Source of the DNA: an uncultured bacterium
Lineage (GTDB): Bacteria > Omnitrophota > Omnitrophia > Omnitrophales > Aquincolibacteriaceae
DNA length: 64,000 nucleotides
Assembly: GCA_964606385.1 (NCBI GenBank)
Contig: CAZSFZ010000004.1
Coordinates: 47,344-111,343, forward strand
Direction: 5' to 3'
Positions within the stretch are counted from its first letter, which is position 1. The number at the start of each line of letters is the position of its first letter. Shown here one piece after another: positions 3,377 to 28,983 of this stretch. The notes under the pieces were generated by a model. It was given only the letters and a program-made list of their open reading frames with translations. It did no database searches and had not been told where the DNA came from. The translations under genes were made by a program, and so were the position numbers.

Positions 3377-3390
3377 ATAGGGCTATGGGA

Positions 3391-3478
3391 CACGGTCCAC
3401 GGGCCAAGAAAATCTTGGACGAGGGACAGAAATAACGCATAACAAACCGTGGGGCGTGGCCCGCAGAGCGTGGCCCGA
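3391..3478. repeat. Family-2 palindromic element (CACGGGCC ... GTGGCCCG units) upstream of DAHP synthase
   Basis: cacggtccacgggccaag-spacer-ccgtggggcgtggcccgcagagcgtggcccg. A GGCTAT-like unit (atagggctatggg) lies immediately 5'. Confidence 0.65.
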
Positions 3479-3495
3479 ATAGAGGAGCTTAAAAT

Positions 3496-4578: not shown

Positions 4579-4619
4579 AAATAGCCTGATAGGCATTATC
4601 ACGGTAAAGAGGTGAATTT

Positions 4620-9792: not shown

Positions 9793-9888
9793 ATGAATTC
9801 GCATAAAACATTCAAAGCGTTCGTTGCTGGTTTTACGGCCCTCATTTTTACCGTTACAAGTTTCGGAATTTCACCCAACGCTTTTGCG
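9793..9888 (+). other. Predicted Sec signal peptide of giant protein (cleavage near AFA/AAA)
   Basis: MNSHKTFKAFVAGFTALIFTVTSFGISPNAFA|AAA: n-region with K, hydrophobic core, AxA site. Confidence 0.6.
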
Positions 9889-12800
9889 GCCGCAGCCATG
9901 CCTGAAGTGTCTCTGCCGTATCAGGCCGCGCTCGGCCAAAGCCTGAATCTTGCGGTCCCTCAAAAACTTGGCAAACTCGAACATTTCAACGCGGGGCAAA
10001 GCGATAAGCCCGCGATCTTCCATCTCCAGACAGCTCACGGGCATTATGAAGCCCAACAGCAGATCCGCGAGATCCTTCATTATCTTGATAAACAATACGG
10101 TGTGCGGACCGTGCTGGTCGAAGGTAGCGCTTTCAAGCTCGAACCCGAGCTCCTGAATTTTTTCCCCAAAGATAAAGCGCTGACGCAGAAGGTGAATGAC
10201 GCGCTTACAAAACGCGCGATCGTCAAAGGCCCCGAACTGTATTTGCTCGATATGCTCGGGGAACGGGGAACGGGGAACGCAAACGTTAACCGTTCCACGC
10301 ATGACGTTTCCCGCGCTGCCGCACCGGCAGCGTACGGCATCGAAGACCTCAATGCTTATCGCGAGAACGGCGTTTCATTTGTAAACGTGCTCGAGGAAAA
10401 ACAGAAGACCGAACAATTCCTCGCGGACATGAACCTCCAGATCGACCGGCTTGCGAGCCAGCTCCTGAACAAAGACCTCCGCGATTTTCTTCGTCGCGTG
10501 GATGCCTTTGAAAAGAACCAGATCCCGCTCGATACCTGGCTTGCCCAGTTGAAAGGGGAGGCCGCCAAGCGCCTCGAGATCGATCTCGCTTCTCCCACCC
10601 AGCAGTTGGATTGGCCGATGATGGTACGTCTTTTCAAGGCCCAGGAGTTGACCGCGAAAATTGACCGCGAAAAACTCCCGAAGGAACGTGAGGAGTTTCT
10701 GAAAGCGATCCGGCGTTTTATGCCGGGGAACGTAAAACGTGGAACGCAGAACGATCCGTCAACCGTTTCCCGTTCACCGTTCATCGCGATCGAATCGTTG
10801 CTTCATAGCGATTCGATAAGCGTCCAGCTTCCAGATCCTGAAACCGGCATGCTTTTTGAAGATATGGTCACGCAACTTCCCGCGAATTTCAATTATGAAG
10901 CTTTCCCGAATGTCCGCAATTTTATCGCGACCCTGCTCCTTCAAAGCGAGTTGAAAGCCGACCTGGTGATGTTGGAAGTCCAGAAACTTACGGCAGCGGT
11001 CACGGAAAAGCTGACCCGCAACAAGACCGAGAAAAAACTGGTGACGCTGCTTGCCGACCACCGGTTGTTGCAGAAGCTCTTTGCGCTGGAGCTCACGCCG
11101 GCCGATTACGAAGCAATCGCGGGACACGATCCACGGTCCAAGGCCCACGAAAAAACTTTAAAGCCCTCAGCGATCGTAGCGCGGTTTAAAAACGTGGCCC
11201 GTGGCCCGGGAGCCGTGGCCCGGAGCAAGGCTGTTCAATTTGAAAACGTTCAAGAACTTGATCAGCTCGACCAGTTATATGAAAGCGCGATGAAGTTCTA
11301 TGAGGGCGTCAAAGGGCGCGACGAGCTCATGATGAAGCGCGTTGAAGAGCGTCTCAAGGAGACGGGGGATCAGAAAGTCGCTGTGATTACCGGCGGTTTC
11401 CATTCCGAGCCTTTCCATAAATATTTTGCGAACAAGCAATACACCTATGCCCTTATTTCTCCGCGCATCTCAGGCGCTGACGACAAAGGCCACGTTGCCT
11501 ACATCGAAAGCGTCATGGGCATCACGAAACGCGCGACACGCGAGTCCGTTTCTCCGGCGGACCGGCAGGTGCTCGCGGCGGAGAATTTATACGGGGTCGA
11601 TCAGGCAGCCTACCGGAACCTGGTCCGGAAAGTCATCGCGGATGTGACGCGGCCCCACCTTGCAGAAGCAGACGCGGCTCGTTTGAAATTTGCGGCTGGG
11701 CTTGCGACGGCGGGGAATTTCCGCGCTGAAATGCGTCAGACCGTGCCGGGCACGCCTCAGAACACCGGGGAGACGGCGGCCATTACCTTTACGGAAGCCA
11801 AAGATATCGTAGAAGCCCGTAAAGCCAAAGCGCGGGTCCAGGGGACGCGCGGGGCTTGGCCCAGTCTCGACTCTGTTTTTCGCGATTCCTCTTTTGTGTT
11901 CATTCCAATCGCTGTCGGGTCCGAATTTGCTGGAAATTATTTTCTCCGAAGCCGCTCCGAAGCGAGAGCAAACGATGAGGGATTGATAGAGCAAATTGTG
12001 AGGGACCTTAAAGAGAACATTCAAGCGGGTCCCGACTTTATCTTGACTGCTCTTCAAAACCGGCGCAGCTTGCTGACCCTTGAGCTCAATTATTATGATA
12101 TTGCGGAGCAAATTTACCAGACGCTTTCAAAAACCGGGATGAAAAAGGTGGAAGCCGAGATTTTTTTCAGCAAAAACTCCGATGCTATCCGCCAGGCATT
12201 TTCCCGTTCCGAGGCCCGTACCGAGGAAGAAGAAAGAGCTTTGAGTGTCGATATCCTGCTTGGGCAGTCGCCTCAAAAGTTGCCCCAGGATGTTATTCAT
12301 AAGCTCAAAGAAAACGGTTTTCAGACGTTTGGGGACATTCTGACGGCTCTTGATGAGAAGCTTCGGAAAGGGAAGAGAAGGTTTTCTTTTCTGGATTGGG
12401 TGACAGAAGTTGAATTCCTCGTCGCTGTGAAGCGCGAGGCGCCCATCAGCTATGCCAAAATTCAGAAAATCCGCACCCCCAAAAGCCGTGCGGAAGTACG
12501 CGAAGCAAGCGAATTCGGGATTGAGGAAGATGACAAGTTTCCAATGACCGATGCCGAGGCGGATCTTTCCCTCGACGATATCATCGGGGAACTGTATGCC
12601 GTAGCGGATGCGGATGAAAGCGATTCCGGCGATGCCAAGGCTGAAGCGCTTCAGCATATTGATTTGATCCAGAGCGCCAAGCATAAAAATCAACTTCTTC
12701 CGGCTATCGTTGATGCTCAGAAATTCCTCCGCAGTCCCTTAGCGGCCAATCGATCAGAAGTTCGAATCGATCCGAAAGAGCTTGAAGCAAAATTCCCGAC

Positions 12801-15800
12801 TGCGGCCGAACTCGGCATCAAAAGACCCGCCAAATGGCAGTTCTGGATGCAAGATCCCGTGATCGAACGCATGAAAGCCTATGCGACCGAATATCTTGCT
12901 TTTTATGGGTATGCTCCCAAGGCTGCTTGGCTCAAGAGTTTTGTGGATATGTATCTCGCTGGGAGCCGCCACTCCTTTCAGGCTTTTCAGCGCATGCTTC
13001 CCGCTGACAAGCTGGATGCTTTTGTCTACATCGGTGATCTGAAGAAACTTCCCACAGCTCCTCAGCCCGCCGCTAAATCTGAAGTTCAGTCCGCGCTCAA
13101 GAAGCCAGGCGCCAAGCGATCCGAAATCCGGTTAACGCCTGAACAGGAGACGCGGCCATTAGATATCGTAAAAGACCAAGCTGCAATTAGTCATGTTGTT
13201 GTGACCGCTGAGTCCCTTTATAGGCAATGGTCTTCAAAATGGTTTTGGCAGTTACGCATGGGAGAATTTTCTAATGCAAAAAAGCAAATAAAAGCCCTTC
13301 TTGAAAACAAAAAACTTACTTATAAAGACCGGAACTTCTATGGTCTCAACAGACAACCAATTACCGAAGAAGCATTTATTCTACAAGTCATTGTTTTAGG
13401 GCGTTTGGGTTATGGTATTGACGCTTCGATTGTTACCAATAAAGAGATCACACGCTCAGTGAGCCGCGCTGGAAAACGTGACAGCTGGGAGACGTCAGAA
13501 GATGTTGAGCATTGGGGGCGCGACGTGGAAGTGGTGAGTCCGGCTTCGCACAATATTTATTTAGTAGCAACTGCTCGTTCTGAAGTTCGCTTGACGGATG
13601 CCGTGGATGTTTCGAATCAAGCTTTGTTTAATGATATCCGGTCGGTGGCGGAGAACCGGGGTGCTGAGGCCGCGCTGGAGTTCATTCATGCCTATGAGCC
13701 ACGCATCACGGGAGACCAGGACCGCGCCGCGCTTGAGGCTTATCGCAAAGCTTTAGAGCAATCGATGCGCTCAGAGCTACGTAACGCTGGAGAAAAAGAA
13801 GCTAAACGCCTCCAGTTAATGGAAGAGGCGAAAGCGCTGTCAGCGCAATCTGAGGCGATGGCCAAGGATCCTGATGAGGAACGGTACGCTCCTTTATATG
13901 AAGGCTATGCCCGCGAGAGATTGCGTCAGGCCGCGCAGCTTGAAGCTGAAATGGATGCTTCAGCCCGAGCTGAATTACGGGTTGGTGCAGTCATTCAACG
14001 TGTAGCAATCTTTGCGGCGGTGGCTGCGATGACGGGTCTTGTCGGATGCGCTACGAGTCAGCCAGGCCTTTATCATCCGCCGGTTTATTATCCCGCTTCT
14101 CAAAAGACACCCATCTATCATCCGCCGACCTTACCGTCCAACTACAGAGCTCCAAAAATCAATACGGCTCCTGTGGTTCCTCCGGGGGGTATCCGTGTGA
14201 CGCCTCCCCGCCCGTCTGTTCCGCCTGCGCCCAAGCCGCCGGTGATCCGTCCGGGACGTTCGGAGGTTCGTAGTGCGTTCCATCATCTCAAAGAAGCCAA
14301 GACGCCCGCGGAAGTCGGGCATTATCTGGCGCAGCTTTTGGTGACAGGCCAGTTGAACGGTCAGGATAAAAAGATCCTCGAGAAAGCCCTACAAGATGAA
14401 TTTGCTTCAGAAACATCCGGGGAAAAAGTCCAGGATCCTTCAAAGATCACACGTCGTTCCGAATTAAGGGGACACTTGGATCGAATTCGAAAGGCCCAGC
14501 AGAGGCTCGAAGAGGAACGGACCAGCGCCAAATGGCTTGTGATCCTTGGTTTGGCCGGACTTATTTTTATCCTGCACGCTCTCGAAAAATCTTCCTCAGG
14601 AGAAATTGATGAAGCGCAGACGCAAGCCCCTTTGCTTGATCTTGGGCAGGCCCAGCCGCGTTCGGAATTACGTGAAACAACGCAGGAAGCGCTGAGGAGG
14701 ATCCATGCGGACCTGGATGGTGTTGACCGGTTGATCACGGAACTTAAGCGCGACCGAAAAGCACCGAACCGAGAGACCCGTTTGAGGGTGTTGAATGCGG
14801 CTTACCGCGAACTCGAGCAGGAACGGCTTCGCTTGGAGATCGAAAAAGCGGTTAAAGATTTTTGGGGCGAAGAACTCATTCAGTTTCTTGGCTCGGTGGC
14901 GACCGTTTCTCCGGCGACACTTGGGCGCGCTTTAGTTCTGGGTGCGGTCATGCATCCCGCCATGATTCGGAATTTCACAAAGCTGGACCGTTCGGAAGTG
15001 AGGGCGGAAGCGGACGTGGCAACTGCGGCAAAGATCGCCGAACGATGGAAGAGGATCACTTATGTTGAAAGCGATCCGGAAGGCGCGAAGCTCAAGGCCG
15101 AAGCCGAAGAGAAAGGCGCTGGCTTCTTAAACAATGCCCAGACGACCGTCCGTAAAGTCGCAGCCCAGATCAAGCTCGATCCCAAAGTTCTTGAAAAGCT
15201 CCTCCAGTTTACGAAAGCGATTCAGATCAAGATTCCCCTGACGCTCGATGAAGGCGGGGAGACGCGTTACATTGACGGTTACCGTATTGGTCACGCTCCT
15301 TATCGCGGTCCTTACAAGGGCGGCATCCGTTACGCGATCGCGGTTGTGCTGTCCATGATCAAGGCGCTCGCGACGGAAATGAGTTTCAAGAACGCGATCG
15401 CGGGGCTTCCGTACGGCGGCGGCAAGGGCGGCGTGGCGGTCAACCCGAAGGAACTTTCCGTGAAGGAGCTTGCGCGCTTGACCCGCGGGTATGTTTCAGA
15501 ATGCCTGAAGCAGGATCCCAAAGCTTTCGGGCCCCTTGACGATGTTCCGGCGGGAGATATCGGAACTACTTCCCGTGAAATGGGCTGGTTCGCGGATGAA
15601 TTCTTGAAGATCACGCGTCCGGATCTTTTTACTTCTTCGGAGTTCCTTGAAAAACTTGCCAAGTCCGATGAAACCTCCACTCCTTATCTTGAATACTATA
15701 TGGAAGCTTATTACGGCAAGAGGCATATCGATATGAGTGAAGGTTCGCCCATCGCGACCGTGACGGCGAAACCCGAAGGGAAGGGCGGGGCTATGGGCCG

Positions 15801-18800: not shown

Positions 18801-21800
18801 CAATTTTTCGGCGACCAAGGACATCAATAATCAAGGGAGCCAATACCTGCCTGAGGAATCAGGACGATTTGTCGCTAAGATCCGTGACATGTTCGAAGTA
18901 GCTAAAAAACAGGGCGAATTCCGTTTCGCGATCGCTGCAGCGAATGATCCTCTCATCGATGAAGAATTGATGAAAGCGACGGATGACGGAACGGATGTCT
19001 ATGTGGACTACCTGAAGAACGGTGTTGCGACGGGCGTCAATTTAGACCGCATCCGCAACGTCAAAGATAAGATCATTGTCGATAGTGTCGGAGGGTCCAT
19101 GTACCGGACCATGACGCGTATCTTTGCGAAACTCGGGATTGCGGACGCGTTCCAGTGGTTGCATACAGAAGAAGACCCGTTCTTTCACGGGATTGGTAAG
19201 GAATTGACCTCTGCGGGGAAGGTGAACGACTACACGCAGGACACGACGGTCATTAAACGTGACAAGAAAACCGGGGAAACGACTTCGATCCCTGTCATGG
19301 AACGTATGGGGTATGACACGCTTCTTAAGGACGCGCCGATCGGGAAAGTAGTGCTTATGACGGACCCGGATGGAGACCGTCTGGTAACGGGACAGGTGGA
19401 ATCCGCGGACCGTGCCGCATACTTGAAACAGCTTGGAGTGGAAGTCCTGAAGCTGGACGAGAATCGGATCCTCGCGGTCTACTCTCCAAACCAATCCTTT
19501 TTCATGTCGATGGTTTATCACGCGGATTCGCTCAAGGCCGCGGGACTGTGGGATAAGCACCCGCGTTTTATCATCATGACGACCGCTTCGTCGCCGGCGT
19601 GGCGCGAATGGGCCGAGAAGAACGGCGTCCAAGTCCTGAACGTGCCGGTCGGTTTTAAAGAGATCGCCGCGATGATGAAGAAGGTCGAATACCAGATGAA
19701 GAAAAATCCGGGAAAACCGGTCGTTGTGAAGGACGTCTTTGGGCGAGAAGTGAACCTGGGTTTGGACCCCCGGATGCTTTTTGCAGGAGAGGAGTCCGGC
19801 GGGATGATCATCGGGCCTGAAGAGCTTATCCAGAGCCGGAGCGGCCGTTTGGCGATCGCGATGCGGGAAAAGAGCGCGGGCGAAGCACTCGTGATCCAAG
19901 CAGCGATGGCGGCTTATTTGGAATCCAAAGGCCAGCCTTTGTCCGGTTATCTCAGTGAACTATTTGATAAGAACCGGATCGCAAGCCGTTTTGATGTGCG
20001 TCATGACCAGACTTTCTACAATCAAAGCGAGCCGGATCCCGATGAACTGAAGAAAGAAAAAGCGAAAGGCGAGATCGCCCGCGAAAAGAATTACGCGTTC
20101 TTTGTGAATATGGTGCTTTCGAAGCTTTCGGGGAAGACGACCACTCAACAGATCATCGAGATATTGAATGAGGTTTTCGCCCCTCAAGGGCTCCGCTTCG
20201 ATGATCTTCAGGACATGATCTTCGTGGGAGATGGTGTTTACCTTCAGTTTCCGGACAAAATCATGGAGATCCGGCCTTCCGGGACTGACGCGAAATCAAA
20301 ATCCTATGGTTACGGGAATGACAAGTTGCGTTTGGCGGTTTATGCGCAGGCCGTGGGTGCCTATAGCGGCGATCCGACGGCTCTTTACCGGCAGTATGTT
20401 GATATGAGCAATTTTGAAGAGGTTAGGGTCGTAAATGGGAAGCCTGTGTTTCGCGGCGAAGATGTTCGCTGGGAGCTTTATCAGGCTTATTACCGGGAGG
20501 GACTTCCGGAAGAGGACTATCAGCCGGCTATGGTTTCCGTCGGCTCAAATCTCGTGACCCCGGCTCAGTCGGAAATCCTGAAAGCGCGTGCGGAAATGCG
20601 TTCGAAACTTGATCTCGAGCAGGCCGCGAAAGCTATGACGATCTCGGCCGCGGTGATCTTGGGTCTTGTGGTCCTGGGCCAGCTCTCTGAAGTCGCTAAG
20701 CTGACGCTTGGCCTTGCCACACTCGGTCTTGCGGGAGCCTTCTGGAACATCCGGAATTTCAGCTTCAAACCGGAGGATCTTTCAAGCCGTTATCCTCAAG
20801 CGACTTCTCTGATCCGGGAGAAGATCCAAAAGATCCTCGCCATCGATCCGCATTTTACGGGTTATGCCTTGGACAGGATCGATTGGAAAAAGATCGATCG
20901 TGATCTTGTGGAGCTTGCTTCCTTAGAAGCGCTCATTGCGCATGGAAGTCAGCACGTTCTGACGGATAGCGGCATCAAGCTTGTTCGGGATGACCGCAAA
21001 GGTGCTGTGACGGTCTTTTCAGCGCAGTCCGTCCGTGACCAGCTCAAGAAGACAGGCGGGGAGATCGTTGAGGCGGGTCACCGGTACCGGCAAGCGGCGC
21101 GCGAACGCTATAGCGTTCAACTGGCTTCGCGTAGTGAGGCGCGCGCAGAAGGGGAAACAGAAGTAAAGCCTGCGGCAAACGCGGCCGTTTCGGCAGAGAA
21201 GCCGGTTGAGGAAAAGCCGGCGCCCAAGATCGATCCCACGAAACCGCTTTATGAAGCTACCTCGTCTCCTCGCGAAGAAAAATCTGCCGTGCTTGAAGGC
21301 GGGGCTATCTTGTTCTGGGGATTTATTGGCATTCTGACCGTGGCCGGATTAGTGGGCGCTCTGATCTTTATTCATAAGGAAGCGGCGCATGATGGTATGT
21401 CTCGCGCGATCATGGTCACGATCTATGGCGTGCTCGCGATCACCGGAACTGTCGCTGGGTGGTTAATCTATGGCATGAGTCGGGATAACCAAAAAATCGC
21501 GGGAGCGGAGGCGAGTTCCAAGTCTGAGGTGGTTTCTCCCGTTAAGGCAGGTAGTCAGCCGTTCCAGCCTTCCGATGCGCCCAAGATCCCCGCGGAAGCC
21601 GCGACGGAAAGCCGTTCCGAAGTGCGTCAAAACGTTGAACAGGAAATGAACGATCTTTTGTCCCGCCGGGACGACCTCATGAAAACCGAAAAATATACGG
21701 CCCAGGTTGCGGTCGAACTTCAGCAGGTCAACGACCGGATCGCGGAGATTCGCCGCAATGTTCAGCAATCCAGAGAGCGTTCGGAAATTCGTAATCCGGA

Positions 21801-24513
21801 AAAAACAATAGATCGAGAAATTGTTCCCGCCCTGATGAAAAGAATTGTCGACCGGGAAATGACGCTTCAAAAGATAGTGGTGGATGAAAAAACCCGTCTT
21901 GAAATAGAAGTTTCTTTGCGTGAACGCGCGATAAACGCTTATCACGCGATCTTTCCCGTTGCAGTCTCAAAAGGATTGGACCCCATAGCGGCTCTAAGGT
22001 TTTTTTATGGGCTGGTTCCTTCGGAAACGGATAGCGATAGAAAATTCATGGACGTCTATGCCGGATTTCTGGCGAAGGATGAAGAAAAGATTCGGGATGC
22101 GAACCGTCAAATATTCGGCACTCCGATCAAGGACCTGGCGACGGCTCGTGAGATCTTTGGGGAAAAATTCTCGTCATGGCTTGGCGTGTTGCTCGCTTTG
22201 CCTCAGGACCTTCTTGAGCAGCGGTTTGCCAAAAAGCTCAGCGGGGACCGCTATGAGCCGGTTGATGAAAATATCTCCGTAATGGCGAACTTCCTTGAGA
22301 ACTTGACGGGGCTTCGTTTGGGGGACGATCGCGAGGTTCTGATCGGGGAAGCCGGTCGGTTGTGGAATGCCTGGAATGATTGGGTCAATCCATCCCGGTC
22401 GATCCCGGTGGCGTCCCGTGTGCTCCAGGTGGGGGGCCTTCAGGTCGTCCAGCATTCCACAGGGTCTTTCATCGCGAAACGGTCTGAGACGCGGATCAAT
22501 CTTATGCAAGTGGCGCCTCAGTTACGGCCTGCGGCAGAATTTCTTGTGGCCACTTTGACGGCCGCAAAAGCAAGCCCGAGGATCGTGACCGCAACGGCTC
22601 GTGAAGTGAAGATCGGAATCACCGATCACGCGGAACGTCAGAATTTGGGGATCATCCTGGCTTATCATCCCGGGAAAACAGGGGTTCTCTATAACAATAG
22701 TGCTCAGCTGCCTGCCGCGGTGGATTTTGAGGTTCGCATTGAACGCGGGGCGGATGAAGCGGAAATGACCACATATGCTTTTGGAGCGGTCAGCGCCGAG
22801 GGCGACGCCCAGGCCAGGGATCTCGTGAATCAATCCTACAGATTGCTTGATACCCTGAGTAAGCTGGAACCTTCCTGGAGCAATGTGCTTCCGGATGGGT
22901 ACTACCCCGGGCGTGGTACCGAAACGGTTTCGCTGGGGACTGAAAAAGATGTCGGACAGACGCGCGCGGAAGTCCGCATCAATGATTTCCGCTATTCCAT
23001 AACCCCGCTGTCCGCGGATGAGAAACGGGTTCCGGGATCGATCAAACGTGAGATGAGTGATGAGGCCCAGCAACCCAATGTTCGCTGGAGCCGGGAGGAG
23101 CTCGAAGGTCTTTCCCAAAAGGTTGTGGATGCGATGAAATACTGGACCCCGAGGCTCTATACCTCCAAGGCTCCGGATGTTCAAACAGCCAAGATGGTTC
23201 AGGAACGGTTATACTCCGAACATTATAGCTATGAGATACCTCTCGCGGCCCATATGTTAAAGGAGATAGCCTTAAAAGCATTGGCCGGAAGAGGTCCTCA
23301 GATCAATGAACTGGGAGAAGGTGACTTGATGTGGGTGGCCAGGGTGCTTCGAGCAGGTGCCGAACATGGCCGCATCCTTCAGAAATACCGGGAAAACTAC
23401 CAGGGGTGGGGGAACTACGACCAGCTGGAATATCTGGCAAGCTCGTCCTCCTATCTGAGAAACGTTCTGAGGAAATTAACCGAGATTTATCAGGCAGAGG
23501 CGCGCCAGGCCGGATCGAATCAGCCCGTGGCTCCTTCCGCGACTGTTCGCTCGGAAGTCCGTGCCGAGGCTCAAGCGGTCTCGCCTGCCGATCAGGGGAA
23601 TTTCATCGTATGGCAGGATGTCCTCGAGGATGTCTACGAGGGTGTCCGTTATGAAGAGACGATCGTTGAAAAAGTGACGCGCTGGTTTCGCGCCGGCATC
23701 CTGCCGTTGCGTGTGGCGTTCTCAGCATCTTACCAGAGAGCGGTGGAGTTGTTGGAACGCATGGGGATCCGTAAAGATGAAGCCGTGGTGCTGGCGAGCC
23801 GTCTTACGGCGGAAGATATGCGGCTGCTTGAGGCGATCAATGCCAAGAGCTTGGCGATCCCCAGGGATCAGACAGGCAAAACCCTTGCCGGCGGTGTTGT
23901 GTTCATGGATGCCGAAGGGCTTCTGGGATTCGCTAAAAATGATAGCCGTGGTTTTTATGCCATGGTGGAAGAACTTGCCGCGGAACAGACGGCAAATGGC
24001 GTTACCGCTAAGCCGATCCTGACCGCGGGAGATGCCGCGTTGATCGGGAAGATCGCCCAAGTATTGAACAACAAGAATTCCGAACTTTTGCCGGCCGAAA
24101 AAGTAAAGGCCCAGGGCTTGATCGATCAAATCCTTCAGGTCGAGGCCCTCAAAGGGGATCAGGCCGCCACGATCAATGGATTGGCCGCGGCAAGACCCGG
24201 GGGGATGGTCACCGTTCTTTCTTCCGCAGAGATGCTGGCGGGCCTTAGCGAAGGAGCGAACTTCGCCTTCAAAGACCGCTTGGCCAAGGAGAACGTGAAA
24301 CTGGTCGTGCGGGCACTTTTGGGACGGATGAGAACGCTGGCAGCCCAATTGGATGGCGCTCCGGCCGCCGATCGGGTCAAGCTTCTTGAAGAGTTCAATG
24401 CGCGTCGCATGGGGGGTCTCAAGAAGACACAGGGCGGATTCGTTTTCGACAATGTCCTCTTGCTCGTCCAGAGCTTTCTCGCTCAGGAAAAAGCGACCGC
24501 GAAATCCGCATAA
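9793..24513 (+). CDS. Giant multidomain secreted/membrane protein, 4906 aa, with embedded amino-acid-dehydrogenase-like and phosphohexomutase-like domains and a recurring R-[SA]-E-x-R motif
   Basis: Uninterrupted 14.7-kb ORF, while neighbouring genes stop at TAA/TGA/TAG. N-terminal signal peptide. No similar-length antisense ORF. Internal enzyme-family motifs. See sub-features and findings. Confidence 0.85.
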   Translation: MNSHKTFKAFVAGFTALIFTVTSFGISPNAFAAAAMPEVSLPYQAALGQSLNLAVPQKLGKLEHFNAGQSDKPAIFHLQTAHGHYEAQQQIREILHYLDKQYGVRTVLVEGSAFKLEPELLNFFPKDKALTQKVNDALTKRAIVKGPELYLLDMLGERGTGNANVNRSTHDVSRAAAPAAYGIEDLNAYRENGVSFVNVLEEKQKTEQFLADMNLQIDRLASQLLNKDLRDFLRRVDAFEKNQIPLDTWLAQLKGEAAKRLEIDLASPTQQLDWPMMVRLFKAQELTAKIDREKLPKEREEFLKAIRRFMPGNVKRGTQNDPSTVSRSPFIAIESLLHSDSISVQLPDPETGMLFEDMVTQLPANFNYEAFPNVRNFIATLLLQSELKADLVMLEVQKLTAAVTEKLTRNKTEKKLVTLLADHRLLQKLFALELTPADYEAIAGHDPRSKAHEKTLKPSAIVARFKNVARGPGAVARSKAVQFENVQELDQLDQLYESAMKFYEGVKGRDELMMKRVEERLKETGDQKVAVITGGFHSEPFHKYFANKQYTYALISPRISGADDKGHVAYIESVMGITKRATRESVSPADRQVLAAENLYGVDQAAYRNLVRKVIADVTRPHLAEADAARLKFAAGLATAGNFRAEMRQTVPGTPQNTGETAAITFTEAKDIVEARKAKARVQGTRGAWPSLDSVFRDSSFVFIPIAVGSEFAGNYFLRSRSEARANDEGLIEQIVRDLKENIQAGPDFILTALQNRRSLLTLELNYYDIAEQIYQTLSKTGMKKVEAEIFFSKNSDAIRQAFSRSEARTEEEERALSVDILLGQSPQKLPQDVIHKLKENGFQTFGDILTALDEKLRKGKRRFSFLDWVTEVEFLVAVKREAPISYAKIQKIRTPKSRAEVREASEFGIEEDDKFPMTDAEADLSLDDIIGELYAVADADESDSGDAKAEALQHIDLIQSAKHKNQLLPAIVDAQKFLRSPLAANRSEVRIDPKELEAKFPTAAELGIKRPAKWQFWMQDPVIERMKAYATEYLAFYGYAPKAAWLKSFVDMYLAGSRHSFQAFQRMLPADKLDAFVYIGDLKKLPTAPQPAAKSEVQSALKKPGAKRSEIRLTPEQETRPLDIVKDQAAISHVVVTAESLYRQWSSKWFWQLRMGEFSNAKKQIKALLENKKLTYKDRNFYGLNRQPITEEAFILQVIVLGRLGYGIDASIVTNKEITRSVSRAGKRDSWETSEDVEHWGRDVEVVSPASHNIYLVATARSEVRLTDAVDVSNQALFNDIRSVAENRGAEAALEFIHAYEPRITGDQDRAALEAYRKALEQSMRSELRNAGEKEAKRLQLMEEAKALSAQSEAMAKDPDEERYAPLYEGYARERLRQAAQLEAEMDASARAELRVGAVIQRVAIFAAVAAMTGLVGCATSQPGLYHPPVYYPASQKTPIYHPPTLPSNYRAPKINTAPVVPPGGIRVTPPRPSVPPAPKPPVIRPGRSEVRSAFHHLKEAKTPAEVGHYLAQLLVTGQLNGQDKKILEKALQDEFASETSGEKVQDPSKITRRSELRGHLDRIRKAQQRLEEERTSAKWLVILGLAGLIFILHALEKSSSGEIDEAQTQAPLLDLGQAQPRSELRETTQEALRRIHADLDGVDRLITELKRDRKAPNRETRLRVLNAAYRELEQERLRLEIEKAVKDFWGEELIQFLGSVATVSPATLGRALVLGAVMHPAMIRNFTKLDRSEVRAEADVATAAKIAERWKRITYVESDPEGAKLKAEAEEKGAGFLNNAQTTVRKVAAQIKLDPKVLEKLLQFTKAIQIKIPLTLDEGGETRYIDGYRIGHAPYRGPYKGGIRYAIAVVLSMIKALATEMSFKNAIAGLPYGGGKGGVAVNPKELSVKELARLTRGYVSECLKQDPKAFGPLDDVPAGDIGTTSREMGWFADEFLKITRPDLFTSSEFLEKLAKSDETSTPYLEYYMEAYYGKRHIDMSEGSPIATVTAKPEGKGGAMGRTPATGLGLYYVTREALKVYGERLGIGTSVKGQRVAVEAYGNVGSYAARSFYKDGASIMALKEYVRGQNVAVTAVKDSGIDLDALDKHLAEKNADGTSKGNTVLTYAAAHPEDARVVDVDQFWSSDVTILALAAKEKTVNKEIAALIKAKIISEGANGPLELDGSEQILLDKGAIILPDVATNDGGVAFSSLEWRQNNIGELWPEVAGNGLMEDKVVSAFYDISRVSESQKITLREAAYQIAISKIVDAMLAEDSELASLFDESHPPYVMDAGAKRWRPETLPQLKQVDSTAKRIELIERADSVMSKKVDELVAEALRELPLKRGSVILLGGQRAAGKPMLAGQIMNKIREKGIKADVLDLDYQTIEDVSRVLQGKTIFVRKENGLSGGAFNLEDKEILVVHGYYALGDEILRFVKAMGGKAYPVMAYSSPDILLANNWALTAYDLRLMRDILTSVAVGEENNAQEVIRRWQWQRVSETEAVMATWKNARRAINTYLPYELPFLKSLIAPMIRVATQQEMKRPDSDVFTMNVLHHLDKLLVGVEGWDVSLLDGHHNSVLWEYVQRYAPNGIYAESADDDIKKVANALVKEAKDTVFLLTSLQDAENLTQLPAWLSASIERILLALEVQKDAASWYVENRGNLVRLLSGRSEMRTMPALGSPHQERSGARLNVLILGRGSDAGVLGEDIWKGLGRPDQGIYMPETEREARSALRNVRGSFDAVVVTIPDGNQTLPRWMFDLVLEMRGQMPEIPVLISASDKSMVSPAAIYTIRAPIKLFVKTQGSPALVATLKDIPARSEARAIPVLGATHPELEAKYKDQVEASTPAYVKRGNPIFDITTPGQFEAVLKYAHLYAYKKDVAFDPANPGPNDEGLGLMAWLEDYEAEAKVATAGIRLTQNILYPWDTRNRINEIGIAFATLAKASVSKEQFSGKDLEKLTGGESRYNTKRFVDMIARIQAAQGIRTYVPVKRHTTPIWMVSMLAFMFDLVGAEHVTSSHAGSNFSATKDINNQGSQYLPEESGRFVAKIRDMFEVAKKQGEFRFAIAAANDPLIDEELMKATDDGTDVYVDYLKNGVATGVNLDRIRNVKDKIIVDSVGGSMYRTMTRIFAKLGIADAFQWLHTEEDPFFHGIGKELTSAGKVNDYTQDTTVIKRDKKTGETTSIPVMERMGYDTLLKDAPIGKVVLMTDPDGDRLVTGQVESADRAAYLKQLGVEVLKLDENRILAVYSPNQSFFMSMVYHADSLKAAGLWDKHPRFIIMTTASSPAWREWAEKNGVQVLNVPVGFKEIAAMMKKVEYQMKKNPGKPVVVKDVFGREVNLGLDPRMLFAGEESGGMIIGPEELIQSRSGRLAIAMREKSAGEALVIQAAMAAYLESKGQPLSGYLSELFDKNRIASRFDVRHDQTFYNQSEPDPDELKKEKAKGEIAREKNYAFFVNMVLSKLSGKTTTQQIIEILNEVFAPQGLRFDDLQDMIFVGDGVYLQFPDKIMEIRPSGTDAKSKSYGYGNDKLRLAVYAQAVGAYSGDPTALYRQYVDMSNFEEVRVVNGKPVFRGEDVRWELYQAYYREGLPEEDYQPAMVSVGSNLVTPAQSEILKARAEMRSKLDLEQAAKAMTISAAVILGLVVLGQLSEVAKLTLGLATLGLAGAFWNIRNFSFKPEDLSSRYPQATSLIREKIQKILAIDPHFTGYALDRIDWKKIDRDLVELASLEALIAHGSQHVLTDSGIKLVRDDRKGAVTVFSAQSVRDQLKKTGGEIVEAGHRYRQAARERYSVQLASRSEARAEGETEVKPAANAAVSAEKPVEEKPAPKIDPTKPLYEATSSPREEKSAVLEGGAILFWGFIGILTVAGLVGALIFIHKEAAHDGMSRAIMVTIYGVLAITGTVAGWLIYGMSRDNQKIAGAEASSKSEVVSPVKAGSQPFQPSDAPKIPAEAATESRSEVRQNVEQEMNDLLSRRDDLMKTEKYTAQVAVELQQVNDRIAEIRRNVQQSRERSEIRNPEKTIDREIVPALMKRIVDREMTLQKIVVDEKTRLEIEVSLRERAINAYHAIFPVAVSKGLDPIAALRFFYGLVPSETDSDRKFMDVYAGFLAKDEEKIRDANRQIFGTPIKDLATAREIFGEKFSSWLGVLLALPQDLLEQRFAKKLSGDRYEPVDENISVMANFLENLTGLRLGDDREVLIGEAGRLWNAWNDWVNPSRSIPVASRVLQVGGLQVVQHSTGSFIAKRSETRINLMQVAPQLRPAAEFLVATLTAAKASPRIVTATAREVKIGITDHAERQNLGIILAYHPGKTGVLYNNSAQLPAAVDFEVRIERGADEAEMTTYAFGAVSAEGDAQARDLVNQSYRLLDTLSKLEPSWSNVLPDGYYPGRGTETVSLGTEKDVGQTRAEVRINDFRYSITPLSADEKRVPGSIKREMSDEAQQPNVRWSREELEGLSQKVVDAMKYWTPRLYTSKAPDVQTAKMVQERLYSEHYSYEIPLAAHMLKEIALKALAGRGPQINELGEGDLMWVARVLRAGAEHGRILQKYRENYQGWGNYDQLEYLASSSSYLRNVLRKLTEIYQAEARQAGSNQPVAPSATVRSEVRAEAQAVSPADQGNFIVWQDVLEDVYEGVRYEETIVEKVTRWFRAGILPLRVAFSASYQRAVELLERMGIRKDEAVVLASRLTAEDMRLLEAINAKSLAIPRDQTGKTLAGGVVFMDAEGLLGFAKNDSRGFYAMVEELAAEQTANGVTAKPILTAGDAALIGKIAQVLNNKNSELLPAEKVKAQGLIDQILQVEALKGDQAATINGLAAARPGGMVTVLSSAEMLAGLSEGANFAFKDRLAKENVKLVVRALLGRMRTLAAQLDGAPAADRVKLLEEFNARRMGGLKKTQGGFVFDNVLLLVQSFLAQEKATAKSA
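10256..10315. repeat. Family-1 palindromic element inserted in-frame inside the giant ORF
   Basis: ggggaacggggaacggggaacgcaaacgttaaccgttccacgcatgacgtttcccgcg. Translates GERGTGNANVNRSTHDVSRA without a stop. Confidence 0.7.
10724..10790. repeat. Family-1 palindromic element inserted in-frame inside the giant ORF
   Basis: ggggaacgtaaaacgtggaacgcagaacgatccgtcaaccgtttcccgttcaccgttcatcg. Translates GNVKRGTQNDPSTVSRSPFIA. Confidence 0.7.
11193..11223. repeat. Family-2 direct tandem (GTGGCCCG x3) in-frame inside giant ORF
   Basis: cgtggcccgtggcccgggagccgtggcccgg, translated VARGPGAVAR. Confidence 0.6.
13981..14260 (+). other. Predicted TM helix followed by a Pro/Tyr-rich low-complexity segment in giant protein
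   Basis: VGAVIQRVAIFAAVAAMTGLVGCA, then PGLYHPPVYYPASQKTPIYHPPTLPSNYRAPKINTAPVVPPGGIRVTPPRPSVPPAPKPPVIRPG. Confidence 0.55.
14527..14585 (+). other. Predicted TM helix in giant protein
   Basis: AKWLVILGLAGLIFILHAL hydrophobic stretch. Confidence 0.5.
15190..16560 (+). other. Glu/Leu/Phe/Val dehydrogenase (GDH-family) domain inside giant protein
   Basis: Family motifs in canonical order: PYKGGIRYA (substrate Lys), GGGKGG (catalytic Lys loop), DVPAGDIGTTSREMGWFADEF, and NAD(P) fingerprint AYGNVGSYAARSF. Confidence 0.75.
16770..16890 (+). other. P-loop kinase-like segment (degenerate Walker A) inside giant protein
   Basis: GSVILLGGQRAAGKPMLAGQIMNKIREKGIKADVLDLD resembles a uridine-kinase/PRK-type N-terminus, but GKP replaces GK[ST]. 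Confidence 0.3.
18430..20400 (+). other. alpha-D-phosphohexomutase (PGM/PMM)-like domain inside giant protein
   Basis: All four family motifs in order: Ser loop TSSHAGSN (~18790), metal loop TDPDGDRL (~19365), sugar loop AGEESGGM (~19790), phosphate loop IRPSGTDAKSK (~20275). Confidence 0.7.
20620..20752 (+). other. Predicted pair of TM helices in giant protein
   Basis: AAKAMTISAAVILGLVVLGQL...LTLGLATLGLAGAFWNI. Confidence 0.5.
21298..21480 (+). other. Predicted cluster of ~3 TM helices in giant protein
   Basis: GGAILFWGFIGILTVAGLVGALIFI...AIMVTIYGVLAITGTVAGWLIYGM. Confidence 0.5.
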
Positions 24514-25854: not shown

Positions 25855-26838
25855 ATGACCGACACTCCGGATTCTTCCTGCGCGATCGAGTTTGAGCATG
25901 TGTCCAAAAAATACGGCTCGTTCTACGCGCTTCGCGACGTTTCTTTCGATGTCCGGGAAGGCGAGATCGTAGGATTTCTCGGGCCGAACGGCGCCGGGAA
26001 AACGACGGCCATGCGCATTCTTTCCGGGTTCTTTCCTCCGACGAGCGGGCGCGTCTCCATTTGCGGGACGAATATGTTCAAGAATCCTCACAAGGCCAAA
26101 CGTTTTTTGGGCTATCTTCCCGAGGTTGTGAGCCTTTATCCCGACATGAAGGTGATCGAATACTTGCGTTTTGTGGCGAAGCTTAAAGGGGTTCCGGCGC
26201 ATGAGATCAAGGGGCATGTAAGAAGTAAAATGAATTTCTGCGGACTCCAGGAGACCGGTCACCGTTTGATCGGGCGGCTTTCCAAAGGTTATCGCCAGAG
26301 GGTCGGCCTCGCGCAGGCGTTGATCGGAGACCCGCGGGTCCTGATCCTGGATGAACCGACGACGGGGCTCGACCCGACCCAGATCAAGGAGATCCGTGAT
26401 CTTATTCGTGCGTTGGGGCAGAACCGCGCGGTGATCCTTTCGACGCACATCCTTCCGGAAGTTTCCATGCTTTGCAGCCGGGTGATGATGATCAATCAGG
26501 GCGAGATCCTCGCGAATGGGACTGTTCCGGAACTGGCCTCCTGCCTGGAGGACCGTGAAGCGATCCACATCAAGATCAAGGACCGCAAAGACCAGGCGCG
26601 GGCGCTCAAGCTCCTGAGCGCGATCCCCGGCATTGAGGCCCTGAAAGTGGCGGAGGAGGTCCGAGGCGAGACCTTTATTTCCTTCGAAACTTCGCCCGAT
26701 CAGGACCTCCGGCCCCGCATCATGAAACTTTTTGTGGATGAGAAGATCTCGCTTGCGGAGATCCAGCGCGTTCAGTTGTCGCTCGAGGATATCTTTCTTG
26801 GGCTTTTGAAGAACGGGAAGCTCGGGAGGCGTTCGTGA
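25855..26838 (+). CDS. ABC transporter ATP-binding protein (ABC-2 / gliding-motility-associated type)
   Basis: Walker A GPNGAGKTT, signature LSKGYRQRV, Walker B LILDEPTTGLD. Confidence 0.85.
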   Translation: MTDTPDSSCAIEFEHVSKKYGSFYALRDVSFDVREGEIVGFLGPNGAGKTTAMRILSGFFPPTSGRVSICGTNMFKNPHKAKRFLGYLPEVVSLYPDMKVIEYLRFVAKLKGVPAHEIKGHVRSKMNFCGLQETGHRLIGRLSKGYRQRVGLAQALIGDPRVLILDEPTTGLDPTQIKEIRDLIRALGQNRAVILSTHILPEVSMLCSRVMMINQGEILANGTVPELASCLEDREAIHIKIKDRKDQARALKLLSAIPGIEALKVAEEVRGETFISFETSPDQDLRPRIMKLFVDEKISLAEIQRVQLSLEDIFLGLLKNGKLGRRS

Positions 26839-28969: not shown

Positions 28970-28983
28970 GAGGTTCATGCCCG

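Follow-up and report, generated by a model that had tools for sequence, protein, structure and literature searches.

A five-residue boundary motif divides a giant Omnitrophota gene into unrelated cassettes and points to a probable cellular polyprotein

The window, a 64,000-nucleotide stretch of a metagenomic contig from an uncultured Omnitrophota bacterium, contains a single reading frame on the forward strand (9793..24513) that starts with ATG, ends with TAA and encodes 4906 aa with zero internal stops. It lies among housekeeping genes, with lpxA upstream on the minus strand and tyrS downstream. Since neighbouring genes terminate with TAA, TGA and TAG, a recoded stop codon does not explain the length of the frame, as the original prediction had argued. 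Two contigs assembled independently from other sequencing runs (SRR15237811 and SRR15237810) encode exactly the same 4906-aa product, which speaks against a chimera or a masked frameshift, and composition is uniform along the whole ORF. The frame, the identical product in other assemblies and the normal stops of the neighbours thus bear out the claim of one uninterrupted giant gene. A search for syntenic homologues beside lpxA and tyrS, proposed together with that claim, retrieved 49 from Omnitrophota genomes at the same site, so that lpxA-giant-tyrS represents a conserved core locus. Retrieved family members range from ~1 to 7.8 kaa, more than 100 relatives being 1.5–7.8 kaa long, and a 79%-identical orthologue (P0011) has 4781 aa. 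Every homologue with a name and each of the 49 genome loci comes from an Omnitrophota/Omnitrophica MAG or an unnamed MAG.

The product had been described as a string of mutually dissimilar, unrelated modules and not a repeat adhesin, and both statements hold. No cassette resembles another, no repeat arrays were detected with Pfam, tandem arrays of homologous domains of the RTX, Ig or cadherin kind are absent from the window protein and the only DNA repeat in the ORF is a trivial 26-nt tandem repeat. Three features escaped the first reading: a boundary motif, conserved first and last cassettes and the near-absence of cysteine (Table 1).

Table 1. Features of the giant ORF, with positions in the window and residues of the encoded protein
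Feature	Position	Strand	Residues (aa)	Remarks
Sec-type signal peptide	9793..9888	+	1-32	ends ...NAFA, followed by A
First cassette core, putative TIKI/TraB/erythromycin-esterase-fold domain	9955..11532	+	~55-580	
Motif 1, RAEMR	11722..11736	+	644-648	closes first cassette
Motif 2, RSEAR	11953..11967	+	721-725	starts homology block shared with L014 (at 2274)
Motif 3, RSEAR	12205..12219	+	805-809	ends block shared with L014
Motif 4, RAEVR	12487..12501	+	899-903	block shared with L036, 434-526
Motif 5, RSEVR	12751..12765	+	987-991	block shared with L003, 700-827
Motif 6, RSEIR	13117..13131	+	1109-1113	precedes cassette S06
Motif 7, RSEVR	13576..13590	+	1262-1266	orthologue comparison
Motif 8, RSELR	13768..13782	+	1326-1330	orthologue comparison
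Motif 9, RAELR	13966..13980	+	1392-1396	lipoprotein-type signal peptide next
Internal lipoprotein-type signal peptide (predicted)	13981..14049	+	VGAVIQRVAIFAAVAAMTGLVG-C1419	lipobox LVGC; starts at motif 9 +1
Pro/Tyr-rich spacer of lipoprotein cassette	14050..14256	+	1420-1488	read from sequence
Motif 10, RSEVR	14257..14271	+	1489-1493	
Motif 11, RSELR	14455..14469	+	1555-1559	
Hydrophobic helix, cassette S11	14527..14583	+	1579-1597	N-flank 5 K/R, C-flank none
Motif 12, RSELR	14659..14673	+	1623-1627	
Motif 13, RSEVR	14989..15003	+	1733-1737	GDH cassette begins after motif
Glutamate dehydrogenase (GDH)	15217..16554	+	1809-2254	Pfam PF02812, PF00208
Degenerate P-loop, kinase-like region	16729..16935	+	~2313-2381	GGQRAAGKP; second half of GDH cassette
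Motif 14, RSEMR	17743..17757	+	2651-2655	
Cassette S14	17758..18186	+	2656-2798 plus motif	no Pfam match
Motif 15, RSEAR	18187..18201	+	2799-2803	
PGM-family cassette S15	18202..20586	+	2804-3598	0 Cys
Motif 16, RAEMR	20587..20601	+	3599-3603	
Hydrophobic helix pair, start of cassette S16	20623..20754	+	3611-3654	
Motif 17, RSEAR	21130..21144	+	3780-3784	
Hydrophobic helix pair, cassette S17	21310..21474	+	3840-3894	
Motif 18, RSEVR	21613..21627	+	3941-3945	
Motif 19, RSEIR	21778..21792	+	3996-4000	
Motif 20, RSETR	22480..22494	+	4230-4234	
Motif 21, RAEVR	22963..22977	+	4391-4395	
Motif 22, RSEVR	23548..23562	+	4586-4590	last cassette follows
Last cassette	23563..24510	+	4591-4906	alpha/beta core; ends ...AKSA

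The motif R-[S/A]-E-[V/A/L/M/I/T]-R occurs 22 times in the 4906-aa protein, against 0.27 occurrences expected from shuffling, and divides it into 23 unrelated cassettes. When k-mers were searched without bias, RSE.R likewise came out on top, with 17 occurrences where 0.098 were expected (p 2e-32). In other frames and other genes of the window, the motif is found at chance level only. It is specific to the family: the syntenic giants (n=50, 120 kaa) hold 309 motifs (2.6 per kaa) and an independently retrieved set (n=144, 432 kaa) holds 929, giving a density of 2-2.6 per 1000 aa in more than 190 relatives against ~0.05 in ordinary genes of the same loci. Motif count increases with protein length (r = 0.71). 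Between 10 and 20% of family members (approximately) have few or no motifs and no detected substitute; when motif-poor giants were searched for substitute motifs, a variant was recovered in P0072 only. The lineages of L046, P0121 and P0074, for instance, lack the motif. In the P0072 lineage, [R/H]xELR is present 18 times, a drift expected for a site that co-evolves with its protease. Literature searches for the motif strings returned noise only.

The motif marks cassette boundaries. Homology blocks occur at shuffled positions between giants, and 29% of them start and 17% end within 3 aa of a motif, against 2.7% at random. In 79%-identical orthologues, whole cassettes have been gained or lost exactly at motifs; cassette S06 (aa 1114-1266), for instance, is missing from P0011. 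No Pfam domain holds a motif in the window protein or the giants scanned. The motif itself is 82% identical between orthologues and the flanking 10 residues are ~50% identical and indel-rich. Flanks are less hydrophobic than average, and motif-adjacent residues have low pLDDT in both AF2 models. In these respects it behaves like a short linear motif that is conserved within flexible linkers. At the residue following it (+1), S, T, A and N are enriched and Pro and aromatics depleted, so that from its residue preferences this position looks like a protease P1' position. A minimal member of the family, P0155, obeys the same grammar, consisting of leader, motif, PGM, motif and last cassette.

Among 943 cassettes compared, only two families are common across the giants, the first and the last. 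The Sec-type signal peptide reported originally is readily seen (K5, K8, a hydrophobic core at 9-27 and AFA at 30-32), and an equivalent hydrophobic leader is present in 101/106 family members with a complete N-terminus. The first cassette has the parallel beta-sheet alpha/beta core fold of the TIKI/TraB/Ere/ChaN superfamily. This link came only from the fold search; no Pfam match was obtained even at E <=10 (TraB_PrgY_gumN, Erythro_esteras and Cofac_haem_bdg included), nor any match in a PDB sequence search with the first-cassette family profile. Conserved residues comprise H77, H82, E110, R509/D510 and T533-G-G-F-H537, of which H82, E110 and H537 are >=98% conserved. The H82-E110 spacing of 28 equals that in Bcr135 and RRSP, and a Thr occupies the position of RRSP E3900. 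With these residues, the first cassette retains its His-Glu-His signature intact and is a putative TIKI-fold hydrolase. The first motif of relatives comes a median of 111 aa behind TGGFH. The last cassette, modelled with AF2 at pLDDT 74 (85-96 in the core), returned generic fold matches only in a fold search. Its C-terminal [A/S/M]-A is found in 93/144 relatives. The C-terminal ~900 aa had been described as helical or coiled, which is not simply so: this region comprises five separate cassettes, the last of which is a 316-aa alpha/beta domain.

Several internal cassettes correspond to whole proteins. The GDH domain (Pfam E 3e-43 and 4e-38; catalytic-Lys motif GGGKGG at 1875) aligns with PDB GDHs at E 4e-69, PDB residues 7-10 pairing with cassette residues 32-34, so that the natural GDH N-terminus falls ~25 residues past its motif. 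GDH cassettes of L013 and L007 likewise begin at a motif, and in L007 a complete PGI (profile positions 1-486 of 486) fills one cassette; 6PGL is also represented among the cassettes of the family. In the PGM cassette, only domain III scored above the Pfam cut-off, and all four phosphohexomutase signature loops are present (TSSHA, DPDGDR, GEESGG and RPSGTD). Free-standing proteins of 753-775 aa share 50-53% identity with it over >90% of its length; residue 4-10 of these proteins aligns with aa 2808-2815, their first residues matching motif+1. By alignment, this 800-aa PGM-type cassette corresponds from end to end to an entire free-standing protein of ~760 aa. With GGGKGG and the four loops in place, both enzymes look intact, in agreement with the original prediction, which also held for the degenerate P-loop: GGQRAAGKP is present, and the region has weak matches to APS_kinase, AAA_16 and nSTAND3 (E 0.016-0.07), all under Pfam cut-offs. 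Judged by eye from its sequence, cassette S14 looks receiver-like. Pfam searches on individual dark cassettes and four further giants yielded almost nothing, and no protease.

The four clusters of hydrophobic helices and the Pro/Tyr-rich spacer noticed earlier were located at residues 1399-1417, 1579-1597, 3611-3654 (a pair) and 3840-3894 (a pair), with the spacer (1420-1488) behind the first internal helix. Hydrophobic helices are only ~1.8-fold enriched in the first 20 residues past a motif; alternation of helix orientation across motifs was not significant (p = 0.14). By charge bias, the helices at 1399, 1579 and 3611 are all N-in, and no helix lies between the first two, an arrangement that a continuous chain cannot satisfy. 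Cassette S09 begins with a predicted lipoprotein signal (VGAVIQR-VAIFAAVAAMTG-LVGC), with a positive n-region, a hydrophobic core and a lipobox of the form [LVI][ASTVI][GAS]C, and an Lgt gene is present within the window. The same arrangement after a motif is found in L007 (twice), L009, L048, P0011, P0012, P0020 and P0030, and 4/5 internal lipobox-type cysteines in the independent set occupy this position behind a motif (p 5e-5). Internal lipoprotein signal peptides are rare across the family.

The giant protein has just two Cys (C1419 and C1904), that is, 0.04% against 1.25% in 28 neighbouring genes, a ~30-fold depletion (P about 3e-24). Free-standing homologues of the cassette enzymes have 2-6. 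This near-absence, which extends to the cassette enzymes, counts for export of the whole chain, as does P0155, where a signal peptide immediately precedes PGM. Enzymes that depend on NAD(P) and sugar phosphates count for a cytoplasmic location, as do internal signal peptides, which require N-in orientation.

Since a five-residue motif repeated 22 times divides the gene into gene-sized cassettes, with a conserved short motif at the junctions as in a polyprotein, the product is most likely a polyprotein. We consider it reasonably probable that the chain is a cellular polyprotein, which an endopeptidase would cut behind the second Arg of the motif to give ~23 separate proteins. Some 23 unrelated, gene-sized proteins would be encoded in one reading frame, spaced by R-[S/A]-E-[V/A/L/M/I/T]-R, and a site-specific endopeptidase recognizing P5 Arg, P3 Glu, a hydrophobic P2, P1 Arg and a small P1' would free each cassette with its natural N-terminus, linker and motif remaining attached to the C-terminus of the product upstream. 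The first cassette, with its signal peptide and TIKI-fold hydrolase, would reach the periplasm, and S09 would become a membrane lipoprotein; S11, S16 and S17 would be inserted in the membrane, and the GDH-kinase, the PGM-type enzyme and many small proteins would be soluble. The cut, its side, the enzyme and the compartment are what we infer from these features. An example peptide for the candidate cleavage site is LSGRSEMRTMPA. The signal peptide and the helices of the 540-kDa chain are supported, and the label 'secreted/membrane protein' originally given to it as a whole is probably too simple, ~23 separately targeted products being favoured over one such chain.

No candidate processing protease is encoded in the window or recurs as a cassette among the 943. 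The TIKI-fold domain, the only shared enzyme-like cassette, was considered as a motif-specific protease. Its signature does not track the presence of the motif: motif-less giants retain the catalytic residues, which neither backs nor excludes the idea. With the signature kept in such giants and a predicted periplasmic location, the first cassette is not clearly the processing enzyme. A more specific version of the polyprotein, which we put forward only tentatively, has it take the place of an operon: a conserved chromosomal locus with a hypervariable interior would specify, in a single frame and with no boundaries between genes, dozens of complete, unrelated products, from metabolic enzymes, lipoproteins and membrane proteins to small peptides. 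Export would be indicated by the near-absence of Cys, the signal peptide and the conserved terminal cassette. An Arg-specific protease dedicated to R[S/A]E-hydrophobic-R would cut the chain after its export in unfolded form, and functional enzymes might thereby reach the surroundings of the cell or enter a host or prey cell.

Alternatively, the giant may stay uncut as a membrane-anchored multi-enzyme scaffold, with R[SA]ExR as a non-proteolytic linker motif that docks, for example, a partner, a chaperone or a translocon factor at every boundary between domains. This is the default in published Omnitrophota work, which treats giants as single SP+TM or TM proteins; it agrees with the failure to find a protease and with motif-less members that keep the same overall architecture, and the exposed-linker position would suit any short linear motif. 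We nevertheless regard it as unlikely, as lipoprotein signal peptides beginning exactly past a motif make little sense in an uncut scaffold, the three N-in helices would break the positive-inside rule in one continuous chain, cassettes correspond to complete free-standing proteins with natural N-termini at motif+1, and Pro and aromatics are depleted at +1.

It is improbable that the motif is a scar or joint of cassette insertion and shuffling, left by recombination at a short site and without a present protein function. The gain, loss and shuffling of cassettes exactly at motifs would fit such a joint, as would a position-specific codon bias among the 309 motifs of the syntenic giants (Arg-1 is CGY in 252/309 and Ser-2 is TCN in 226/238). 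However, third codon positions vary, with all four or six synonymous codons in use, neither the remaining frames nor the opposite strand is enriched in the DNA pattern, and position 4 is limited by residue type (V/A/L/M/I/T), not by nucleotides. Conservation of the motif at 82% while its flanks drift to ~50% indicates selection on the peptide, and the codon bias is explicable by selection-locked codon families (TCN to GCN for Ser/Ala and CGY to CAY for Arg/His). An explanation by DNA-level repeats was rejected, given the varying synonymous codons and the chance level in other frames.

Another possibility is that the motif acts in translation, as a nascent-peptide ribosome pause or a StopGo/2A-like chain break at each boundary, by which cassettes would be separated, or folded and targeted singly. 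Such a protease-free break would explain the boundary punctuation, the missing protease and the targeting signals right past the motif. To our knowledge, though, the motif bears no likeness to 2A (NPG-P) or to bacterial arrest peptides. It has no conserved Pro, and its tolerance of S-to-A and V/A/L/M/I changes looks like a protease subsite profile. The lack of a conserved start codon or Shine-Dalgarno sequence after the motif, together with position-4 codons GTA, GTT, GTC, GCN and ACN, excludes internal initiation. We find the translational explanation hard to credit. That the long frame is an artefact, through misassembly or sequencing errors hiding stops between ordinary genes, is practically untenable: nothing was found in its favour except that the window is itself a metagenomic assembly, and against it stand the uniform composition, the identical protein in two further independent assemblies, the orthologue, the >100 relatives and equally long frames at the 49 syntenic loci.

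For the giants of Omnitrophota, function as a single chain or as cut pieces is an explicit open question, and the main paper on them says that missing cleavage points blocked further analysis. The enriched boundary motif makes this question directly testable, since the N-termini of hundreds of products can be predicted from it to the residue, for example A2804, V1397 and A1738. It also provides a rule for splitting giants into cassette-sized pieces for structure prediction and annotation, and suggests that internal signal-peptide calls earlier dismissed as artefacts are real. How such chains are handled is hinted at separately by the ~30-fold depletion of Cys and by the conserved cassettes at either end. 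If cleavage is confirmed, these genes would form a large natural family of cellular bacterial polyproteins with housekeeping enzymes, a strategy so far tied to viruses and a few toxins, and fuse-and-cleave expression tools could be built on the site and its protease.

The architecture had been presented as unrecognised, which is not supported, as giant genes have already been described in Omnitrophota (bioRxiv 10.1101/2023.11.21.568195; bioRxiv 10.64898/2026.06.07.730766), and the window gene is a smaller member of this group. The phylum, one huge ORF, a signal peptide, scattered TM helices and many unrelated domains, including PGM/PMM and sugar-metabolism enzymes amid mostly sequence-unique content, are shared with multi-enzyme giants. 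In the 'multi-enzyme metabolic cluster' class, PGM and receiver domains rank with the most frequent contents (bioRxiv 10.64898/2026.06.07.730766), and the window protein likewise combines a GDH, a PGM-type enzyme, a kinase-like P-loop and dark cassettes with no dominant repeated domain. However, the giants studied in these papers measure at least 10-30 kaa, and the window protein, with 4906 aa (4.9 kaa), falls short of the 10,000 aa set as the operational limit in the 2026 catalogue. The papers speculate that giants are cleaved into smaller products and report no sites; one of the two states that the cleavage points are unknown, and the other discarded internal signal-peptide calls as artefacts (bioRxiv 10.1101/2023.11.21.568195; 10.64898/2026.06.07.730766). 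The boundary motif, the Cys depletion, the lpxA/tyrS locus and the two conserved end cassettes, the first with its TIKI fold, are reported in neither. Archaeovorin- or dockerin-type features (dockerin, TSP3, C39 or S8 peptidase, SecA-like) gave no Pfam hit at E <=0.1 over the whole protein.

TIKI, TraB/PrgY, erythromycin esterase and ChaN proteins, whose fold has peptidase and esterase members as well as a haem binder, have in common with the first cassette a His-Glu pair spaced by 28 residues and a distal GxxH histidine. Unlike them, the first cassette carries a ~340-residue helical insertion and is in every case joined, behind a signal peptide, to the N-terminal end of a giant protein. The same fold is found in RRSP, an effector of the MARTX toxins of Vibrio and relatives. 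These are also 3.5-5 kaa long, with conserved ends and variable, recombining, unrelated internal effector cassettes that are released by cleavage in the linkers between them, analogous to the release proposed here. MARTX toxins are autoprocessed by a cysteine protease domain. Pfam detected no RTX/glycine-rich repeats and no such domain (CPD, Peptidase_C80) in the window protein, and with only two Cys one is unlikely. The locus has no T1SS partner, the downstream transporter being of ABC-2/GldG-like/DUF4340 type and not HlyB/HlyD. MARTX cleavage sites, after Leu, do not form a fixed five-residue motif as R[S/A]ExR does. Moreover, the cargo of the giant includes housekeeping-type enzymes where that of MARTX consists of toxins, and its gene occupies a core chromosomal locus, unlike MARTX.

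In P0072, five 12-residue units (TAQNSHAELPSS) are each flanked by motifs, resembling the repeated cores flanked by protease sites in cyanobactin PatE-type multi-core RiPP precursors. They differ in that they occur in one relative only, inside a 6.5-kaa protein, with no modification enzymes identified.

The window gene differs from those of viral polyproteins (picorna- and flavivirus), Kex2/furin-processed repeat proteins and nematode polyprotein allergens in being a cellular gene from a bacterial phylum with a free-living or epibiotic way of life, with mutually unrelated products and no cis-encoded protease found. Its R-S/A-E-hydrophobic-R motif also departs from the furin/Kex2 consensus (R-x-K/R-R, K-R). 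Nevertheless, it shares with these precursors a single ORF and a short motif at every junction, with Arg last and little prime-side specificity, and their products are released with native N-termini, as we propose for the cassettes of the window protein.

The giant ORF, whose product we call the window protein, is one uninterrupted frame, in agreement with the original prediction, and has a uniform composition. It is surrounded, also as predicted, by ordinary housekeeping genes: the order is DAHP synthase, tyrA, rpsA, fabF and lpxA, then the giant gene, tyrS and an ABC-2-type exporter, with lpxA near the giant on the opposite strand and ordinary TAA, TGA or TAG stops ending 28 neighbouring genes. 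Two contigs from independent assemblies of other sequencing runs encode the identical 4906-aa protein, and an orthologue of 4781 aa is 79% identical; it is therefore very unlikely that the frame results from misassembly or hides frameshifts. The protein features expected from the sequence were also recovered: a signal peptide, clusters of hydrophobic helices (near aa 1399, 1579, 3611-3654 and 3840-3894), a Pro/Tyr-rich spacer after the first internal helix, a degenerate P-loop, a glutamate dehydrogenase (GDH) with the catalytic GGGKGG motif and a phosphohexomutase-type (PGM) domain with all four signature loops. No internal repetition was found in the giant protein, as had been claimed from the dissimilarity of its segments.

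Coordinates of the features discussed in the text (nucleotide positions in the window)
Feature	Position	Strand	Remarks
Giant ORF	9793-24513	+	4906 codons, single unbroken frame
Second domain of the GDH cassette	16555-17757 (aa 2255-2655)		about 400 aa, degenerate P-loop; no motif between it and GDH
Shared C-terminal tail of the window protein	24466-24510 (last 15 codons)		ends ...AKSA
ABC-2-type exporter set after tyrS	25855-29994		ATPase, permease, GldG-like auxiliary protein, DUF4340
Lgt (prolipoprotein diacylglyceryl transferase) gene	40034-40771		E 2e-68
454-aa ORF	62067-63431	minus	no Pfam family at E<=1e-5; neighbours are well-annotated housekeeping genes

The giant frame contains 22 copies of the motif R-[S/A]-E-x-R, where shuffling expects 0.27. 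In an unbiased gapped k-mer search, no pattern was more strongly over-represented than RSE.R (17 vs 0.098 expected, p about 2e-32), and all six frames of the rest of the window hold only 17 scattered matches, which is the chance level. Cutting the window protein at the motifs yields 23 segments of 55-918 aa, the segments between motifs being referred to here as cassettes. Among 50 syntenic giants, the consensus is R100 [S77/A23] E100 [V34 A22 L13 M10 I8 T6] R100, with weak flanks. The copies differ in their codons and hence do not constitute a DNA repeat. Across 309 motifs of the loci (in the window, for example, the motif codons at 11722-11736), Arg-1 is encoded by CGC or CGT in 252 cases (138 expected), Ser-2 by TCN in 226 of 238, with AGY almost missing, while Arg-5 shows a slight NGG excess and Glu no bias. 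In our reading, prolonged selection on the peptide has fixed the codon families: a single step leads from TCN to the allowed Ala (GCN) and from CGY to the His (CAY) of a variant lineage. In that lineage, represented by the relative P0072, [R/H]xELR replaces the motif in 18 copies, including a run of 12-residue mini-cassettes. This run (P0072 aa 5076-5158) consists of tandem units (TAQNSHAELPSS) with the variant motif between them and looks like a multi-copy peptide precursor.

Motif density per 1000 aa is 2.6 in the 50 syntenic giants and 2.15 in 144 independently retrieved proteins vs about 0.05 in ordinary genes of the same loci, a seeming excess in the latter control being due entirely to more giant Cys-poor ORFs adjoining the main giant. 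Motifs are few or absent in about 10-20% of giants, some of which also have no substitute; the giant architecture can therefore exist without the motif. Homology blocks common to different giants occupy differing positions from protein to protein, and 29% of their starts and 17% of their ends fall within three residues of a motif (random, 2.7%). Identity of the window protein to its orthologue is 82% in the motif and only about 50% in the ten residues on either side, where indels are many; cassettes have been gained or lost whole, exactly at motifs (e.g. aa 1114-1266). Most cassettes lack a recognisable family. Every Pfam domain detected in six giants lies between motifs, including a complete phosphoglucose isomerase as well as 6-phosphogluconolactonase-type, 2-hydroxyacid dehydrogenase, ACP-like and DUF218 domains.

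Homologues of the first 643 residues were found only in Omnitrophota. An exhaustive profile search returned 8068 representative clusters at E<=1e-3 (2588 of these at <=1e-30), and the best 150 of the 8068 are nearly all proteins of 1-7.8 kaa starting with the first-cassette domain, which has a TIKI-type fold. A scan covering one genome per species gave 49 loci, all from Omnitrophota or unnamed MAGs. lpxA lies just upstream of the giant in 19 of the 49, and tyrS followed by the same ABC exporter lies downstream in all three loci reaching that side; the ABC-2-type exporter set is conserved downstream in L017, L020 and L038. This makes the giant a core gene passed on by vertical inheritance, its ends conserved and its interior hypervariable. 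Division of 100 proteins at their motifs gave 943 cassettes, 601 of them singletons, the only recurrent ones being the first cassette (100/100) and a few related last-cassette families.

The last cassette is modelled as a generic alpha/beta domain; its C-terminus is -[S/A/M]-A in 93 of 144 proteins. Complete members share a tail composed of G-x-[S/G]-[F/Y]..., an amphipathic helix and [S/A/M]-Ala-COOH, possibly a signal for sorting, secretion or degradation. Giants also occur in tandem (L021, L042 and L043, upstream of the N-domain ORF; L010, L018 and L050; the P0155 locus, where this 1057-aa relative lies directly upstream of a 4605-aa giant). In these arrays, the shared tail ends one giant and, a few hundred bases on, a signal peptide and TIKI-fold cassette begin the next. 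The first cassettes of P0001 (= L004) and P0006 carry in-frame inserts of about 25 residues (..EYGVRST...TPYAFRRT.. type; three in P0001), perhaps a small mobile or repeat element that keeps the reading frame. Their insertion sites correspond to short low-confidence loops in the window protein model (near aa 159-173, 314-327 and 447-453).

The PGM-type cassette (800 aa) matches free-standing proteins (753-775 aa) of unrelated bacteria at 50-53% identity, and more than 90% of the cassette is covered. In the alignment, aa 2808-2815 lie opposite residues 4-10 of these proteins, which puts their first residue at about aa 2804, the preceding motif being 2799-2803. By this alignment, the cassette is equivalent to a whole protein with its N-terminus directly behind the motif. 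Solved glutamate dehydrogenases start about 25 residues past the motif preceding the GDH cassette. The 918-aa fusion of GDH and the P-loop domain is also conserved in three relatives, suggesting a stable two-domain product. C1419, one of only two Cys in the window protein, is the lipobox Cys of a canonical lipoprotein signal peptide starting at the residue after motif 9. Relatives have the same layout, e.g. RSELR followed by GKFAKSIILGIIALAAGC, and in an independent set four of five internal lipobox-type Cys lie 16-27 residues past a motif (p about 5e-5). The window contains an Lgt gene; therefore, the organism encodes the machinery that an internal lipobox needs. The position directly following the motif is enriched in Ser, Thr, Ala and Asn and depleted in Pro and aromatics, and motif-adjacent residues have low confidence in both structure models. 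P0155 shows the minimal grammar of leader, motif, PGM, motif and last cassette.

Taken jointly, gene-sized products, native N-termini at junctions, a short conserved Arg-ending site and flexible variable linkers give the giant the appearance of a polyprotein, and on these sequence features we propose that it would be cleaved after the second Arg of the motif. The conserved site would place specificity on the non-prime side, with Arg as its last residue. As to the compartment, there is evidence for export of the whole chain before processing. A signal peptide begins nearly every member (101/106), and in P0155 it directly precedes the PGM cassette. A strong lack of Cys is a typical trait of proteins translocated across membranes in unfolded form or residing in oxidising compartments. 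Of the 4906 residues of the window protein, 2 are Cys, about 30-fold fewer than in neighbouring genes of the window (0.04% vs 1.25%, P about 3e-24), and relatives L003-L051 and P0011-P0154 average 0.07-0.09% vs about 1-1.25% in neighbouring genes; the depletion reaches the enzyme cassettes, though their free-standing homologues have 2-6 Cys. There is also evidence that the chain is cut before membrane insertion: the cassette enzymes depend on NAD(P) and on sugar phosphates, charge bias favours an N-in orientation for each of the helices at 1399, 1579 and 3611, the first two of which have no other helix between them, and N-in insertion is obligatory for lipoprotein signals. Across the family, helix pairs within cassettes alternate in 6/6 cases and 9/23 pairs across motifs do not, a difference in the expected direction that is not significant (p = 0.14).

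No candidate gene for the protease that proposed cleavage would need is encoded in the 64-kb window, and none recurs as a cassette among the 943 from 100 proteins. The TIKI-fold domain of the first cassette is unlikely to be the motif-specific processing enzyme, as this type of fold also covers esterases and a haem-binding protein, the domain is placed behind a signal peptide and its catalytic residues are retained in motif-less giants.

Giant genes of Omnitrophota have already been described (bioRxiv 10.1101/2023.11.21.568195), and the one studied here is a new, smaller member of them. Their cleavage into smaller products has been suggested from C39 and S8 peptidase domains (bioRxiv 10.1101/2023.11.21.568195), and PGM and receiver domains are frequent in a 'multi-enzyme metabolic cluster' class (bioRxiv 10.64898/2026.06.07.730766). 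This 2026 preprint mentions no motifs, linkers, cleavage or cysteine and down-weights internal signal-peptide calls as artefacts (bioRxiv 10.64898/2026.06.07.730766). Our literature search found no paper linking Omnitrophota with polyproteins, and the punctuation grammar of the motifs, which makes the finding interesting, appears to be undescribed so far. Dockerin, TSP3, C39, S8, SecA, RTX and CPD domains were not found in the window protein by Pfam; therefore, it is neither an Archaeovorin nor a MARTX toxin. The closest functional analogy is nevertheless with MARTX toxins, in which the ends are conserved, the cassettes are unrelated and shuffled, and the linkers are cleaved.
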